Shown: one piece after another, positions 7,302 to 12,518 of the stretch | Position numbering within the stretch: the first letter of the stretch is position 1 | How the letters are laid out: each line of letters opens with the position of its first letter | IMG/VR virus record: IMGVR_UViG_3300027740_000010 | Span: 1-52,157 of that record | Length of the DNA stretch: 52,157 nt | Direction: 5' to 3' (one strand) | From: a virus | Taxonomy: Duplodnaviria > Caudoviricetes | Position numbers and translations under genes: made by a program | Notes under the pieces: model-generated | Told to the model about the DNA's origin: nothing | The model's input: only the letters and a program-made list of their open reading frames with translations | Database searches by the model: none

Positions 7302-7421
7302 ATGCAAGGCTATGACCCAAGAATGAAGTGCCTAACGCCTGAGTTAAGCCGCGCCGGTAGGCGTCGGCTGGAAGCGATAGTTAGAAGCCTGCGGTCGACC
7401 GGAGAAAAACAGGAAAAATGA
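7302..7421 (+). CDS. 39-aa peptide read through the attC site, coupled to the MTase start
   Basis: AAGGAG RBS; MQGYDPRMKCLTPELSRAGRRRLEAIVRSLRSTGEKQEK; TGA overlaps the MTase ATG (ATGA). Confidence 0.5.
   Translation: MQGYDPRMKCLTPELSRAGRRRLEAIVRSLRSTGEKQEK
7330..7386 (-). mobile_element. Integron attC recombination site (attC-1)
   Basis: - strand TTCTAAC-TATCG-CTTCCAGC-CGACGCCTACCGGCGCG-GCTTAAC-TCAGGC-GTTAGGC: R''/5 nt/L''/loop/L'/6 nt/R' architecture, very like aadA-type attC sites as recalled. Confidence 0.8.
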
Positions 7422-8113
7422 AGACGACAACGATAAAGAACTGCACGCTGTACCTCGCCGATTATCGCGACGTGCTGCCGATGCTCGGGAAGATTACCGC
7501 CGTGGTGGCTGACCCGCCATACGGCAACGACTACCGGCAGAAGCGCAGCCGCGACAAGCTGGTGCGGCCCGACATGGAACACGCGCCGATTGTGGGCAAC
7601 GCCGAACCATTTGACCCGGCCGCACTACTGACGCTGGCGCCTACCGTGGTGCTGTGGGGCGCGAACTACTACGCCGACAAGCTGCCGGCAAACGGCAAGT
7701 GGCTGGTGTGGGACAAGCGCGAAAACACGACGCCCGACGATGGCGCGGACGTGGAGCTGGCCTGGACGAACCTGCGCGGCGTGCCGCGCATGCACAGGCA
7801 GTTGTGGCGCGGCATTTGCCGGCGCGGCGAAGAAAACATAAGCCGTGGCCAGCGGAAGCTGCACCCGAACCAGAAGCCGGCGGCACTGATGGACTGGTGC
7901 CTGCAACAAGCCGGACTTACCGAGGCCGACACCGTGCTTGATACGCACATGGGCAGCGGAACCACGGGCCTTGTGTGCCTGCGGCGCGGGATACCGTTCG
8001 TGGGGTGCGAGATTGACCCGGTGCATTACGCGACAGCGGTTGAGCGGCTGCAGCAAGAGGCTTCTAACGATGTAATTCAGGGGGCTGAGCCGCTTTTGGC
8101 GAAGCTCCCCTGA
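7418..8113 (+). CDS. DNA N6-adenine/N4-cytosine methyltransferase, beta class
   Basis: VADPPYG (motif IV) precedes HPNQKP and VLDTHMGSGTTG (motif I variant), then GCEID; visibly GC-rich. Confidence 0.92.
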   Translation: MKTTTIKNCTLYLADYRDVLPMLGKITAVVADPPYGNDYRQKRSRDKLVRPDMEHAPIVGNAEPFDPAALLTLAPTVVLWGANYYADKLPANGKWLVWDKRENTTPDDGADVELAWTNLRGVPRMHRQLWRGICRRGEENISRGQRKLHPNQKPAALMDWCLQQAGLTEADTVLDTHMGSGTTGLVCLRRGIPFVGCEIDPVHYATAVERLQQEASNDVIQGAEPLLAKLP

Positions 8114-8434: not shown

Positions 8435-8686
8435 ATGAGCATTGAAGAAGAAGCAAAAGCGCAATTACACACATACGAAAAAGTATCTAAGACGGTGGCT
8501 AATATGCTAATAGACGAAATCACATCGATACGTCAGCAACTCGCACTGGCTGTTGCCGCGCTTGACCACATAGGTAACAAAGATGACAAAGATGACAGGT
8601 TTGCACGGGTTATCGCAAACGAAACTCGGATGCAGATTGCGTTGTTAGAGGTGGAAGCTTCGAGTGAGACTGCCAAATGCGTTTAG
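8435..8686 (+). CDS. Hypothetical coiled-coil protein
   Basis: GAGGAG RBS; ATG at 8435. Confidence 0.6.
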   Translation: MSIEEEAKAQLHTYEKVSKTVANMLIDEITSIRQQLALAVAALDHIGNKDDKDDRFARVIANETRMQIALLEVEASSETAKCV

Positions 8687-9729
8687 TAGCGATGGATTTA
8701 GAAACGCCGCAGGATGTACCAGAGTATGGGCTACAACCGTGGCGAGCAAAGACTGGCGAGGCTACTATTAAGTCGGTAGCGCTCTGGTCAGCAGACGGTG
8801 TGTTTAAGAGCGCAAAAGCTATGCCGTCTAAAAAGTATTTTGCAGAGGTGCTTGCTATCTGTGCCGAGCAGAAGTACGTTATATGTGGCTGGAACTTGCT
8901 GTTCGACATCGCATGGTTGATGGCAATAGGGCTAGAGCAAGAAGTAAAAGCCTGTACTTGGATTGACGGCATGCTAGTATTGAAACGTGTAGATGGCTGG
9001 CGCGACAAAGAGTATGGTGGCATAGGCTTTGGCCTGAAAGAAACAGTTGCTGACGTTTGGCCTGAGCTAGAAGAGTGGAGCCTAGGCGAAGATGTGACTA
9101 AAGTACCTCAAACTGAAGAGGAGTGGGGACGATTACTAACGTACAATTTGCTGGACTCGCAATACACTTGCCAGCTGACTGAGTTTTTCTGGAACCAACT
9201 AAGTCCTGAAGAACGCAAGGGTGCAAAAATTGAGATGTTGTGTTTGCCTGACATTGCGCTGTCATACATCAATGGCATAACGATTAACGTGGCTGCGCTG
9301 GATGAGTTGCAAGCATCAGTTACTGAGTCGCTTGCAGAGAACAGTGTCATCTTTGGCGCAGACCCCAAGATAGTAGCTTCGCCTGCCAAGTTAGGGCAGT
9401 TGTTGTTTGAAGAGTGGGGTTTCACACCAATCAAGAAGACACCAGCAGGTAAGCCTGCCACGGATAAAGAGACGTTGTTGAAGCTGGCGATTCAGCACCC
9501 TGACGACCCTCGCTTTGGTGCGTTGATGGCACTGCGTAAATGTAAAACACGCCAGTCAAAATTTATTGATGGGGTGCGTAAGTCGTTGGCGTACCATGGT
9601 GGGGACGTTACATACCCCAAGCCTGCAATTGCAGGCACGTACACCGGCCGGCTAACATATTCATCCAAGCAGAATGTTAAAGTCCCTCGCAAGGGCAAAA
9701 AGGAGACGGTAGATGAAAGCGACGAGTAA
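8677..9729 (+). CDS. polA: DNA polymerase family A, N-terminal part (3'-5' exonuclease + thumb)
   Basis: ExoI AMDLET, ExoII GWNLLFD, ExoIII YNLLD; SPAKLGQLLF; KKTPAGKPATDKETL; ends just after GTYTGRLTYSS. Confidence 0.9.
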   Translation: MRLVAMDLETPQDVPEYGLQPWRAKTGEATIKSVALWSADGVFKSAKAMPSKKYFAEVLAICAEQKYVICGWNLLFDIAWLMAIGLEQEVKACTWIDGMLVLKRVDGWRDKEYGGIGFGLKETVADVWPELEEWSLGEDVTKVPQTEEEWGRLLTYNLLDSQYTCQLTEFFWNQLSPEERKGAKIEMLCLPDIALSYINGITINVAALDELQASVTESLAENSVIFGADPKIVASPAKLGQLLFEEWGFTPIKKTPAGKPATDKETLLKLAIQHPDDPRFGALMALRKCKTRQSKFIDGVRKSLAYHGGDVTYPKPAIAGTYTGRLTYSSKQNVKVPRKGKKETVDESDE

Positions 9730-9775: not shown

Positions 9776-9976
9776 ATGACACAGATTCTAACAGCTGGAC
9801 TTAGAGAAGCTTTACGTGCTGCGGCAGAGTTAGACCAAGAAGTTAAACAACGCGGATCATCAGAAGTTCGCACTGCGGCAATTGACTCGGTGATTGCGCG
9901 TGCCCACAAGTTGCATCCGAAGTCTTTTTACAGTGATGTATTCGACGCTAAAGGTAGATGGGTAGGTAAGCAGTAA
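9776..9976 (+). CDS. Hypothetical protein (between polA halves)
   Basis: AGGAG RBS. Confidence 0.65.
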   Translation: MTQILTAGLREALRAAAELDQEVKQRGSSEVRTAAIDSVIARAHKLHPKSFYSDVFDAKGRWVGKQ

Positions 9977-10248
9977 TGGGCGATGTTGTTAGTATTGCAC
10001 CTGTGCAGTCCACGGCTACAGGCGAGGCAGTGTGTATGCACTGCAAGCACGAGTGGGTGGCTGTTGCACCTACCGGCACGGCATGGCTGGACTGTCCAGA
10101 GTGCGGTACACAGAAAGGCGGGTTTAAATTCCCGTTTGGTGTAGCAGTCGGAGACATGCTGCTTGTTTGTGATTGTGGAAACGATATACTTTTTGTCACG
10201 CCAGCAGGGTGTTTGTGCCCTAACTGTGGCGAACTCTGGGAGGATTGA
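9976..10248 (+). CDS. Cys-rich Zn-finger protein (between polA halves)
   Basis: CMHC, CPECG, CDCG and CPNCG motifs; TAATG coupling. Confidence 0.75.
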   Translation: MGDVVSIAPVQSTATGEAVCMHCKHEWVAVAPTGTAWLDCPECGTQKGGFKFPFGVAVGDMLLVCDCGNDILFVTPAGCLCPNCGELWED

Positions 10249-10249
10249 T

Positions 10250-10438
10250 ATGCAACTTGAAAAAATGGAATATTTGGGTGATGGTGTTTATTGTGGGCAC
10301 GATGGCTATCAGGTATGGCTAACAACAGGCAGCCATGAAAACGAACCATTGGTGGCACTTGAGCCTTCAGTTATGAAAAAGCTGGTGTCTTATGCTGTGT
10401 CAGTATTCGGAGACAGTGTTGTGAAAGGCGTCCAATGA
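10250..10438 (+). CDS. Hypothetical protein (between polA halves)
   Basis: GGAGG RBS; MQLEKMEYLGDGVYCGHDGYQVWLTT. Confidence 0.7.
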   Translation: MQLEKMEYLGDGVYCGHDGYQVWLTTGSHENEPLVALEPSVMKKLVSYAVSVFGDSVVKGVQ

Positions 10439-10713
10439 TTGAAAAGAGCTGGAAAACTATTGTTTTGCTGGGCAAGTACGATATGGTATATGAGTGTCCT
10501 GTGTGTCAATGCAGGTATTTAGAGCAGGCAGACGGGTATCTGCCAAATATTCATGACCACACCTGTAACTGCGGTTTTCATGAGGTACTTGAAGTCGCAT
10601 ACCAACGACTCACCTCTGAAGGTGACTGGGTTGCCGTGAACCCTGAAGACATTCCACACTACAAATCTCGCGGACAGCTTATCCGTAACCTTTATGCAGG
10701 GGAGCCTTACTGA
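10435..10713 (+). CDS. Hypothetical Cys-containing protein (between polA halves)
   Basis: ATGA overlap upstream; TGATG overlap with polA-C downstream. Confidence 0.6.
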   Translation: MIEKSWKTIVLLGKYDMVYECPVCQCRYLEQADGYLPNIHDHTCNCGFHEVLEVAYQRLTSEGDWVAVNPEDIPHYKSRGQLIRNLYAGEPY

Positions 10714-12518
10714 TGGAACTACCTACAGGAATCGCTTTGCACCAATGGGAGCGTGGCAAGGCGGCACGTAACATCTTGACGGCACCTGACGGTTATTTGC
10801 TTGCAGAGTTCGATGCTAGCGGTCAGGAAATGCGCTTGATGGCTGACATCTCGCAGGACTCTACAATGCTTTCACTGTTCGAGCAAGGCATTGACGCTCA
10901 CGCTTACATGGGCGCGTCAATTGAACGACTTGACTGGCACTGGGTGCATGACGAACAGGATAATGACCCCAAGGCGAAAGCTGCTCGGTATCTAGGGAAA
11001 TTCTGCATTGCAGAAGGAGAGCTTGTATTGACTGACAGGGGACTTGTACCTATCGAGCAAGTTCTGCTTGCAGATAGAGTATGGGATGGGATAGAATGGG
11101 TGACACATACAGGGGCAGTGTACCAAGGAGAAAAACATGTCATCACCTATCAAGGACTTACCGCCACAGAAGACCATCGAGTGTATTTGGAAGACGGAAC
11201 AAACTGCTGGTTTTCAGAAGCCTCCGAAAAGAACTATTGTCTCGCTAAAACAGGAGATGGTAGGACTGCGATTCGGGTGGTGGGAGATCGCTGGTATAGC
11301 GGTAACTATAAAGAACACAGAGACGTATCTGGACTGTGTATGCATGAAATGTCAGCGTCCGTACCAAGTAGCCAAGATGAATTTGTTGTCAGGGAAAAGT
11401 GTCCAGTGCAAGAGCTGTGCAATGAAACAACGTCACGAAAAACAGGGTCACGCACTCATTGCAAACCACACCGAATACTTGGTACAAAAAAGATGCAACG
11501 CAATGGCTCAACGCTGCCAAAACAAAACAGACAAATCGTTCAAAAATTATGGTGCGCGAGGAGTCCAATTCAATTTCGAGTCAGTGGCGGAAGCTATTGC
11601 GTATGTTCTGGAGACACTGCCACATGCGACGTATCAAGGACTGGACATAGACCGAATAGACAACAACGGTCATTACGAGGCAGGCAACTTAAGATTAGTA
11701 TCTCGAAAGGACAATCTAAACAACACGCGGCGAAACACGTTCATAGAGTGGCAAGAGCACTTTATTCCAAGAGTACATGTGTACCATGTACTAAGATCGT
11801 TATATCCAGAAGTGCTTTACACGGAATTAACGGTTCAAAGCCTTGTTTCCAAGGGGCTAGGACTGGAGGAAATTCGAGACAGATACCACAGCCTACGGAG
11901 TTGCAAACCAAAAGGGTGTGGGACATTACCAATGCCGGACCGAGGCATTGCTATACTGTATCTGGATTCTTAGTTTTCAATAGCAATCTTAGTCTCCAGT
12001 ATAGAATTGGCGTAGAGACCATGATGGTGCGTGCGTTAACTGGATATGACTTGCAGCTGACACAGCCGCGTGCTGCCCACATAAAGCACACGTACCTATC
12101 GACATATCCCGGCATTCCAGTATACTGGAATACAGCTATACAGAAAGCAAGAGCGCTAGGCTATGCCGAAACAAAAGGTCATCGCCGCTTAGCCACTCCG
12201 AACATGTCAGACTGGAAGCAGCAACAAACTGCGATCAACCTACCGGTGCAAGGGACGGGAGCTGACATGAAAGAACTTGCTATTGCCGTGTGCAGACCGT
12301 TGTTCGACAACAGCTGTATTTACGCATGGGATTTGCATGACGCGCTGTTCATCTATATCAAGGACGACGCGAAAGCAAAAGGTAAAGTGCTACTGATTCA
12401 AGACGTACTTAACAACCTGCCATATCAAAAGGCATGGGGCTGGACACCATCAGTAGGGTTACCGTGGGATTGTAAATTTGGCAAAACATGGGGAACATTA
12501 AAAGGAGTAGAGAAATGA
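10713..12518 (+). CDS. polA: DNA polymerase family A, C-terminal part (palm/fingers), intein-containing
   Basis: GGGGAG RBS; motif A LAEFDASGQEMR; motif B RYLGKF|SNLSLQY interrupted by the intein; NLPVQGTGAD; motif C LHDAL. Confidence 0.92.
   Translation: MELPTGIALHQWERGKAARNILTAPDGYLLAEFDASGQEMRLMADISQDSTMLSLFEQGIDAHAYMGASIERLDWHWVHDEQDNDPKAKAARYLGKFCIAEGELVLTDRGLVPIEQVLLADRVWDGIEWVTHTGAVYQGEKHVITYQGLTATEDHRVYLEDGTNCWFSEASEKNYCLAKTGDGRTAIRVVGDRWYSGNYKEHRDVSGLCMHEMSASVPSSQDEFVVREKCPVQELCNETTSRKTGSRTHCKPHRILGTKKMQRNGSTLPKQNRQIVQKLWCARSPIQFRVSGGSYCVCSGDTATCDVSRTGHRPNRQQRSLRGRQLKISISKGQSKQHAAKHVHRVARALYSKSTCVPCTKIVISRSALHGINGSKPCFQGARTGGNSRQIPQPTELQTKRVWDITNAGPRHCYTVSGFLVFNSNLSLQYRIGVETMMVRALTGYDLQLTQPRAAHIKHTYLSTYPGIPVYWNTAIQKARALGYAETKGHRRLATPNMSDWKQQQTAINLPVQGTGADMKELAIAVCRPLFDNSCIYAWDLHDALFIYIKDDAKAKGKVLLIQDVLNNLPYQKAWGWTPSVGLPWDCKFGKTWGTLKGVEK
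11004..11981 (+). mobile_element. Intein (326 aa) in PolA motif B
   Basis: Begins CIAEGELVLTDRGLVPIEQV; block B TATEDHRV; ends RVWDITNAGPRHCYTVSGFLVFN; +1 Ser; removing it restores RYLGKFSNLSLQY. Confidence 0.92.
11137..11973 (+). CDS. HNH-family homing endonuclease nested in the +1 frame inside the intein
   Basis: AAGGAG 6 nt upstream of ATG 11137; GLRFGWW..CVCMKC..LLSGKSVQCKSC; MAQRCQN..YGARGV; DIDRIDNNGHYEAGNLRLVSRKDNLNNTRRN. Confidence 0.88.
   Translation: MSSPIKDLPPQKTIECIWKTEQTAGFQKPPKRTIVSLKQEMVGLRFGWWEIAGIAVTIKNTETYLDCVCMKCQRPYQVAKMNLLSGKSVQCKSCAMKQRHEKQGHALIANHTEYLVQKRCNAMAQRCQNKTDKSFKNYGARGVQFNFESVAEAIAYVLETLPHATYQGLDIDRIDNNGHYEAGNLRLVSRKDNLNNTRRNTFIEWQEHFIPRVHVYHVLRSLYPEVLYTELTVQSLVSKGLGLEEIRDRYHSLRSCKPKGCGTLPMPDRGIAILYLDS

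Follow-up and report, generated by a model that had tools for sequence, protein, structure and literature searches.

How a mobile intein can keep a homing endonuclease that is missing from the reading frame that splices is the question raised by the DNA analysed here, the entire IMG/VR virus record IMGVR_UViG_3300027740_000010 (Duplodnaviria, Caudoviricetes; 52,157 bases, hereafter the window). In the window, a plus-strand open reading frame (ORF) for the C-terminal piece of a family-A DNA polymerase (10713-12518) contains an intein (11004-11981), and the middle of the intein, read in the +1 frame, contains a second ORF of HNH endonuclease type (11137-11973). A model that saw only the letters had suggested that the nuclease is a separately translated gene overprinted on the intein. 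Our analysis of this original prediction leads us to conclude, with high confidence, that two genes share the same DNA here as one mobile element, in which a cis-splicing intein overlaps an independently translated +1 HNH nuclease gene.

The host ORF of 601 amino acids (aa) has no internal stop, matches Pfam DNA_pol_A (E = 2.1e-27) and is the C-terminal piece of a split family-A polymerase interrupted in motif B. Its N-extein (10713-11003, +) ends with ...RYLGKF within motif B, and its C-extein (11982-12518, +), again matching DNA_pol_A, runs from SNLSLQYRIG... through the polymerase end. The insert is assigned to motif B because the intein-less polymerases of two relatives, L006 and L005, read GKF|ANLSLQYRIG at this site. 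Between the exteins, the polymerase frame continues for 326 codons from Cys1 (11004-11006) to Asn326 (11979-11981), followed by Ser+1 (11982-11984). The normal splicing blocks that had been noticed at both ends are present as C1, T55xxH58, D307, N326 and Ser+1, and a Hint fold is predicted. In an alignment of 44 sequences (A4), Cys1, T55, H58 and D307 are invariant and Asn326 is nearly so (at least 90% of rows). Among 68 representatives of the family described below, residue 1 is always Cys, and the residue after the intein is Cys in 65, Ser in 2 and lost at a contig edge in 1. AlphaFold2, run on A4, gave confidence (pLDDT) values of 95-97 for residues 1-86 and 300-326. Foldseek placed the mini-inteins NpuDnaE (4kl5), SspDnaB and gp41-1 at the top of the PDB matches of the Hint part with probability 1.00, the root-mean-square deviation from 4kl5 being 2.8 Å across 98 columns, while the Pfam and NCBIfam searches matched no intein family. 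By its residues and its model, the insert is a class-1 Hint intein, which would splice.

The two Hint lobes enclose a very different middle. The N-lobe (residues 1-86; 11004-11261, +; pLDDT 95-97) carries block A with Cys1 and block B with T55xxH58 and is kept in mini-inteins of 118-140 aa. The C-lobe (residues 301-326, ...VWDITNAGPRHCYTVSGFLVFN; 11904-11981, +; pLDDT 96-97) is conserved in all relatives, and its DNA is shared with the last codons and stop of the HNH ORF. Residues 87-300 (11262-11903, +) form an in-frame linker without stops that is not conserved as protein. It is basic, with a net charge of +26, and its composition agrees with the description of the middle as Cys/Arg/Ser-rich: R, S and C make up 10.7, 11.2 and 5.1% of the linker versus 4.4, 4.0 and 1.1% of the exteins. 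For residues 87-292 the model has pLDDT values below 50 (about 40) and no secondary structure. The middle is also missing from 33 of 164 loci, mini-inteins of 118-184 aa in which both Hint parts are kept. The proposal that the intein tolerates a long unstructured insert is thus in keeping with a linker that is predicted to be disordered and not conserved as protein, and these data support the view that the in-frame middle is simply kept open.

Read in the +1 frame, the same DNA encodes a protein of 278 aa, from an ATG at 11137 to a TAG at 11971-11973 that ends 8 nucleotides (nt) before the last base of the intein. The ORF (11137-11973, +) lies wholly inside the intein with its stop in the C-terminal block, exactly as first described, and from 11104 on, 11 codons ahead of the ATG, no stop interrupts the +1 frame. 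The label of HNH endonuclease draws on several matches. The protein matches PHROG 374 and three further PHROGs of HNH or restriction endonucleases; PHROG 374, 3377 and 2081 are each called 'HNH endonuclease' (E = 4.9e-25, 1.7e-20 and 2.6e-10), and PHROG 1035, 'endonuclease VII', is a weak secondary match (E = 1.8e-5). A tblastn search returned 630 phage records, many of them annotated as HNH endonuclease and free-standing. The AlphaFold2 model (pLDDT 91.0; 71-sequence alignment, A3) has 83 BFVD fold matches at E ≤ 0.001, many named HNH or homing endonuclease; several bear a name string that we read as the descriptors under which I-HmuI is entered in PDB. A beta-beta-alpha core is predicted at residues 169-195, made up of two strands (169-173 and 185-189) and a helix (190-195). 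In A3, D172-R173 is invariant or nearly so, N184 is invariant and N196 nearly invariant, as are four cysteines of a predicted Zn ribbon (C69, C72, C91 and C94). On these sequence grounds the +1 ORF is a real protein-coding gene of HNH type, encoding a putative nuclease.

Do the two frames remain open by chance? To obtain an expectation, synonymous codons of the +1 ORF were exchanged among positions with the same residue, preserving both the protein and the codon counts. For the window, these shuffles predicted 12.6 stops in the intein frame, close to the roughly 13 that had been estimated from a naive stop rate; none is observed, and 0 of 20,000 shuffles were stop-free. The third frame has 18 stops over the same stretch. 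The 68 representatives, which are clusters at 80% DNA identity of 111 complete relatives (96 distinct sequences), behave in the same way: the shuffle expectation is 10.3 intein-frame stops each, and there are none in 68 of 68. Summed over these representatives, we counted 1 stop in the core of the HNH frame, 0 in the intein frame and 910 in the third frame. In the +1 overlap, stops are avoided because no HNH codon ends in T before AA, AG or GA, and this avoidance costs the nuclease nothing at the protein level.

The same arrangement recurs across the family. Scans with an intein alignment found 189 relatives in IMG/VR and 98 in GTDB, 80 of each being kept, and with the window and three phage records these make up 164 loci. 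A complete intein with an HNH homologue of at least 150 aa is present in 111 of them. The HNH ORF is offset by +1 from the intein frame in 110 of the 111 and by +2 in 1, and is in frame in none. Homologues with stops in the intein frame had been named as evidence that would count against the overprinting; there are no such stops in any of the 111, and the N and C blocks share a frame in all. The HNH is also at +1 in 19 additional partial loci. Metagenomes searched with the window intein protein as query added 41 relatives, with the HNH at +1 in 25, at +2 in 5, in frame in 0 and without an HNH match in 11. Of the metagenome loci that were not scored as complete with an HNH of at least 150 aa, 13 were checked, and in all 13 no stop closes the intein frame along the HNH; the C block was unrecognised in 12 of these 13. 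Among named phages, Streptococcus phage Javan255, Gardnerella phage vB_Gva_AB1 and Salmonella Jerseyvirus Psm147 have related polymerase inteins with the HNH at +1, +1 and +2, respectively, and in all three the annotated polymerase coding sequence spans the HNH homologue. The GTDB relatives are prophages of many Bacillota, Gardnerella, Corynebacterium, Synergistota, Spirochaetota and others. At the protein level, 1,186 proteins matched at E ≤ 1e-5, many aligning to the whole 326-aa in-frame translation; among the 120 matches listed, most are DNA_pol_A proteins and three are SF2 helicases. An in-frame HNH intein was sought among longer proteins, and the one protein that came up among 1,177 candidates, P0237, is a slipped polymerase and not an in-frame intein, although a blank in this search is weak evidence. 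As far as these sequences go, an out-of-frame nuclease is the rule for this large phage intein family.

Several variants of the arrangement deserve mention on their own account. The Jerseyvirus-type polymerase inteins of Salmonella, Escherichia and Shigella phages have the HNH homologue in the +2 frame (L003:2720-3616 and L167-L176). Inteins of this type were found in 163 phage records, and the intein frame is open in 9 of the 9 that were translated (L003, L167-L172, L174 and L176). In 25 of 67 +1-type representatives, including L002, the HNH ORF ends 4-61 nt past the intein, such that its last codons overlap codons of the polymerase C-extein. Four short inteins (L037, L066, L074 and L086) retain remnants of the HNH in the +1 frame. 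The family also extends beyond polymerases: three SF2 helicase (Pfam) proteins, P0127, P0166 and P0224, contain it with full in-frame read-through, and L018, L044 and L065 have it at non-polymerase junction sequences. These helicase and non-polymerase sites suggest that the intein may jump between host genes.

Which of the two frames is under selection can be read from codon positions. We compared 23 distinct inteins of 309 aa, whose DNA identities range from 60 to 100% with a median of 67%. In codons 1-60 and 301-309, per-site diversity is maximal at intein-frame position 3. In codons 61-300 it is maximal at intein-frame position 1, which is position 3 of the HNH codons, and the intein-frame third positions there vary least or almost least. 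Conservation extends to both frames in codons 61-100 and 281-300, which seem to be genuinely dual-coding. The closest DNA relative of the window, L201, which served for this codon-position count only and not as a complete intein, gave the same picture: differences at positions 1/2/3 were 9/5/27, then 148/94/71, then 4/2/9 in successive stretches, with an excess at position 3 in both exteins. In the +2 Jerseyvirus type, the variability switches to intein-frame position 2, which is position 3 of its own HNH codons. Selection at the protein level thus acts on the +1 frame in the middle of the element and on the polymerase frame at its ends.

The next question is how the inner gene would be translated. 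A Shine-Dalgarno sequence, AAGGAG (11125-11130, +), lies within the intein codons Q-G-E, with a duplex energy to the anti-Shine-Dalgarno sequence of -8.5 kcal/mol; it is followed by the six bases AAAAAC and then the ATG, all inside the intein codons Y-Q-G-E-K-H-V. The predicted ribosome-binding site 6 nt before the ATG is therefore where it was said to be. An ATG occurs at intein offset 133 or 145 in 58 of the 68 representatives, and the two sites use different Hint codons. The offset-145 start, found in most relatives, takes its ATG from a Tyr codon TAT plus G and its Shine-Dalgarno sequence from K/R-E-V (..AG GAG GT..). The offset-133 start, found in the window and six others (L009, L010, L016, L024, L025 and L033), takes its ATG from nAT GTC (H/D/N-V) and its Shine-Dalgarno sequence from CAA GGA GA (Q-G-E). 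Duplex energies of -7.0 kcal/mol or lower were found at 47 of these 58 starts compared to 5.7% of 5,677 other ATG triplets in the same loci, and energies of -9.8 kcal/mol or lower at 19 of 58 compared to 1.4%. The conserved ATG is preceded by a +1-frame stop at a distance of only 1-2 codons in 34 of 58 representatives, which favours initiation over frameshifting. Several mini-inteins still bear the Shine-Dalgarno and ATG signals and look like recent deletions, and they are uninformative as a control. We also considered ATG 11257, the Met of ..QEMVG.. that is conserved in L001 and L002, but there the AGGAG abuts the ATG without a spacer, and its equivalents in relatives have duplex scores of about +1.5 to +2.4. 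On sequence we prefer ATG 11137, though either start would yield the whole homologous domain. With purifying selection on the +1 frame and a Shine-Dalgarno sequence and ATG conserved across relatives, the claim that this frame is a gene with its own start signals stands.

We then examined whether the element is present in all copies of the phage DNA. Contigs of soil-metagenome runs carry the intein stretch, and in two runs of one sample, which may be the source of the window, it is whole and without differences or indels. X3, from another study, contains pieces that match the window exactly, both across the N junction and within the nuclease gene. X3 also contains an intein-less contig in which 10996 is joined to 11981 with six letters between, reading GGC AAG TTT | AGC, or GKF|S. 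In X4, from a third study, an intein-less contig has 0 differences over 10713-10996 and 5 over 11981-12098, with a precise join to 11981. The X3 and X4 contigs leave parts of the stretch uncovered. The element is therefore present in some copies of nearly identical phage DNA and absent from others, a presence/absence polymorphism. Indels that would bring the HNH into frame with the intein, which had been proposed as a way for the overprinting to fail, do not occur in the contigs of the four runs. As a side observation, the three codons before the insertion (10995-11003 in the window) read GGG AAA TTC with the intein and GGC AAG TTT without it; these synonymous differences could reflect a co-conversion tract or a difference in the target site.

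We envisage that the element works as follows. Ribosomes initiating at 10713 would read the polymerase frame through the insert and produce N-extein, 326-aa intein and C-extein as one chain, the intein consisting of two Hint lobes, of ~86 aa at the N side and 26 aa at the C side, joined by ~214 aa of basic, disordered linker. The lobes would fold together, and Cys1, Thr55/His58, Asp307, Asn326 and Ser+1 would splice the linker out, restoring motif B (..RYLGKF-SNLSLQYR..) of the polymerase C-piece. Internal ribosomes starting at the AAGGAG and ATG 11137 would make a free 278-aa HNH, or His-Me-finger, endonuclease, presumably sharing the build of free-standing phage homing endonucleases, in which a Zn ribbon and helical DNA-binding parts accompany a beta-beta-alpha core. 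This nuclease would cut an intein-less polA gene near the motif-B codons in a co-infecting relative, and repair from the intein-bearing copy would transfer the whole element by homing. A stop in the intein frame would be lethal because the polymerase is essential. Splicing, internal initiation, and the activity and target of the nuclease are what we infer from the features described above.

A number of observations weigh against this model. The window intein has Phe rather than His ahead of its terminal Asn, whereas the last two residues among the 68 representatives are HN in 53, SN in 10, AN in 3, FN in 1 and LN in 1; inteins without a penultimate His can splice. There is no RNA run among the runs that hold the stretch. 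On the nuclease side, Pfam (E ≤ 10) and NCBIfam (E ≤ 1) yield no HNH model for the +1 protein, and a Foldseek search of the whole HNH model against PDB returned nothing at E ≤ 0.001. The position of the first His of the HNH motif is occupied by Asp-Arg (D172-R173), such that the general-base His is missing. A PDB profile search with A3 gave PacI (3ldy) at E = 0.06 and I-HmuI at E = 0.17, both weak, and the D172-R173 stretch aligns with the matching PacI motif, although this stretch by itself does not reach significance. PacI, too, reportedly lacks the canonical His, and catalytic competence of the +1 protein is inferred from this PacI-like motif only. Some copies are also irregular. L088, L115 and L133, 3 of the 111 complete relatives, each have one premature stop in the HNH frame with the intein frame still open, and are candidates for nuclease decay en route to mini-inteins. 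The N and C blocks of L201 are out of frame with each other, and both of its frames and its extein are broken. In the SS3e phage (L177, NC_006940.2), comparison with other Jerseyvirus copies shows two one-base homopolymer insertions, by which the intein frame is closed after 14 codons, and the region is annotated as polymerase / HNH endonuclease / polymerase; L177 and L175 are probably the same phage, and the insertions are likely a sequence error in an old record. P0237 follows the intein frame, then crosses into that of the HNH and terminates at its stop. We considered it as an in-frame intein and rejected it, as it is without C-lobe or C-extein and appears to be a slipped polymerase ORF. 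We interpret L201, SS3e and P0237 as errors or decayed copies.

These irregular copies bear directly on other explanations of the locus. The +1 ORF might be an unexpressed relic of a free-standing HNH gene, leaving a vertically inherited mini-intein with a long linker. Nuclease loss does occur in the family, as seen in the three premature HNH-frame stops among 111 relatives and in the 33 mini-inteins among 164 loci, some with HNH scraps. Yet the HNH ORF is intact in 108 of 111, its codon periodicity indicates ongoing purifying selection at only 60-67% DNA identity, the Shine-Dalgarno sequence and ATG have been kept through synonymous choices in Hint codons, and alleles with and without the intein coexist in near-identical phage DNA, all of which makes a relic unlikely. 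Still less probable is a nuclease made by a programmed frameshift into +1, as a fusion of N-extein, Hint N-lobe and HNH. The 11 open +1 codons ahead of the window ATG would accommodate such a product, and P0237 shows the fused reading as a called protein. Against this, the stops 1-2 codons before the ATG in 34 of 58 representatives leave no room for a shift site, a strong Shine-Dalgarno sequence is conserved at the right spacing, and no slippery motif stood out in the aligned start region, where no dedicated search was made.

Two compensating indels that conceal an ordinary in-frame HNH intein would be an artefact of sequencing or assembly, and single records with indels (SS3e and L201) do occur in the family. 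We consider this virtually inconceivable, given the same offset in 110 independent complete loci from three collections, an assembly free of indels in each of two runs of one sample, possibly the source of the window, a shared frame of the N and C Hint blocks in 111 of 111, and, among longer proteins, the lack of any in-frame relative apart from the truncated P0237. Phage polymerase genes reportedly host group I introns carrying HNH genes (PMC3428280), and this raises the possibility that the insert is removed as RNA, or bypassed by the ribosome, with the Hint-like ends incidental. But an intron needs no open host frame, and the frame is open in 111 of 111; moreover, the Hint catalytic residues are invariant and the fold, at pLDDT 95-97, matches solved mini-inteins. 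On the evidence of frame, residues and fold, removal at the RNA level or ribosomal bypass is very hard to sustain. We thus favour a cis-splicing intein that overlaps a separately translated nuclease gene.

How does such an element compare with known systems? Canonical bifunctional inteins, some with an in-frame HNH domain, are said to have been described by Dalgaard et al. in 1997. Like these, the intein described here has class-1 residues, interrupts a conserved motif of a replication protein and has its nuclease between the Hint lobes. In the canonical case the nuclease is a domain of the excised protein, whereas here it would be a separate polypeptide and the excised intein would contain a disordered linker. 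HNH-type nicking homing endonucleases are also encoded in introns, including I-HmuI (PDB 1u3e), whose host gene we take to be the SPO1 polymerase gene. I-HmuI and I-PfoP3I (PMC3428280) similarly target a phage polymerase gene, but their carrier is an RNA-spliced group I intron without any host-frame constraint, as opposed to an intein.

The closest parallels are recent. An actinobacteriophage preprint describes 63 non-canonical inteins (bioRxiv 10.1101/2025.01.02.630785), among them ones whose frame 3 contains an endonuclease VII-like gene, with the catalytic match falling in residues 1-67, and ones with antisense LAGLIDADG or VSR-like genes; in the passages searched, HNH is found in frame only and a start codon or ribosome-binding site is not mentioned. 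The statement that homing inteins carry their endonuclease in frame, on which the original prediction built, therefore describes the usual case but not the out-of-frame and antisense cases reported there in 2025. These inteins resemble the present family in having Hint blocks in the host frame, a middle without recognisable structure and a free-standing-type nuclease in another frame, and they have the same proposed origin, in which a homing endonuclease gene of free-standing kind invaded an intein. The present family differs from them in that a PacI/I-HmuI-like HNH in +1 extends from the Hint N-lobe, with its conserved Shine-Dalgarno sequence and ATG, to the C-lobe. The host here is motif B of a family-A polymerase, and the family is carried by prophages of Bacillota, Actinomycetota and other groups, by Jerseyvirus and by phages from soil and water. 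In all, the family fits the general description of the non-canonical inteins but not the nuclease types or frames described for them.

Two other arrangements share parts of this design. The ShiLan domain, described in 2025 (PMC11855218), is an out-of-frame HNH in an in-frame insertion of mycobacteriophage DNA methylases. As in the present family, the HNH is in another frame, the host frame is stop-free and the in-frame product is predicted to be a loop; PacI is the comparator there too. ShiLan is without splicing blocks and is not thought to splice, and no ribosome-binding site was found for it, a leaderless GTG start being proposed, in contrast to the Hint domain and strong Shine-Dalgarno sequence found here. 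In the fractured genes reported by Dassa et al. 2009 (PMC2677866), a free-standing endonuclease gene lies between the halves of a split intein. Like these, the present element combines a mini-intein scaffold with a nuclease gene of free-standing type that would be translated separately, but in fractured genes the host gene and intein are in two ORFs and reportedly splice in trans. The two ORFs flanking a nuclease gene that define a fractured gene are not found at our locus, and splicing here would be in cis because the intein frame runs uninterrupted through the nuclease gene. Inteins with a separately encoded, out-of-frame nuclease are thus known, though described in print only recently. Our literature search found no out-of-frame HNH in a polymerase intein and no start signals in Hint codons, and the supplements of the 2025 preprint may list relatives. 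So far as searched, novelty lies in the nuclease family and its frame, in the site within the host gene, in the start signals embedded in the intein and in how widely the arrangement occurs.

The polymerase gene itself is split in the window. Its N-terminal piece, with the exonuclease and the start of the polymerase domain, is encoded at 8677-9729 (+; Pfam DNA_pol_A, E = 1.1e-9; PHROG 17, DNA polymerase, E = 4.6e-19) and is collinear with the unsplit 611-aa polymerase of L006. The N piece stops at 9729 and the C piece begins at 10713. Four small ORFs lie in this break (9776-9976, 9976-10248, 10163-10438 and 10435-10713), and a PHROG search of the four gave no match. The Cys-rich ORF at 9976-10248 has a homologue (L006:1696-1977) directly upstream of the unsplit polymerase gene of L006. 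Another relative, P0118, starts at the same split point as the window, and no intein blocks were seen flanking the 9729/10713 break. L005 (L005:1063-3813) has no motif-B intein but a different one in the same polymerase, at GTY|C...N|SGRF, which sits ~ten residues before the point where the window polymerase is split. Upstream of the replication genes, an ORF of 231 aa (7418-8113) is DNA methyltransferase-like, with DPPY and related motifs in its translation.

The annotation of relatives shows how easily the nuclease is overlooked. It has been missed by annotation pipelines and in curated records, some of which call the region one long polymerase. The curated record of Jerseyvirus Ent3 describes the polymerase intein as 'encoding splicing domains' only, and the intein of the neighbouring helicase as also having a LAGLIDADG endonuclease. 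Among 60 Jerseyvirus-type records listed, a few name the stretch HNH endonuclease, endonuclease or hypothetical protein. Because annotation misses the nuclease, homing would have gone unrecognised both in Salmonella and E. coli phages that are in wide use and in the prophages of bacteria from the gut and vagina.

On balance we lean towards a broader view, with clearly less assurance than for the window itself: that the inteins of phages and prophages in motif B of family-A polymerases, with helicase offshoots, form an entire clade, old and widespread, that never has an in-frame nuclease. Throughout this clade, a mini-intein and a free-standing-type HNH gene would form a stable overlapped unit, with the Shine-Dalgarno sequence and ATG placed in conserved Hint codons (K/R-E-V + Y-D/E, or Q-G-E + H/D/N-V) and with both alternative frames reached (+1 here, +2 in Jerseyvirus and some metagenome loci). 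If this is true, the overlapped unit would be a living form of the intermediate that has long been sought to connect free-standing homing endonuclease genes with split and bifunctional inteins, and many 'endonuclease-less' inteins in curated phage annotations would actually be mobile. The arrangement would mean that intein splicing and homing can come from two translation products of the same DNA, and it has a direct bearing on how split inteins arise and on whether inteins originated by the route 'splicing first, nuclease invaded later'. It is also a clean natural case of overprinting, in which one frame need only stay open, through synonymous choices in the other, and in which the effect can be measured, at ~10 expected stops removed per copy over the 68 representatives and 12.6 in the window. 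Finally, the family may offer compact Hint scaffolds that tolerate a disordered insert of at least 200 aa, and nucleases aimed at a polymerase motif.

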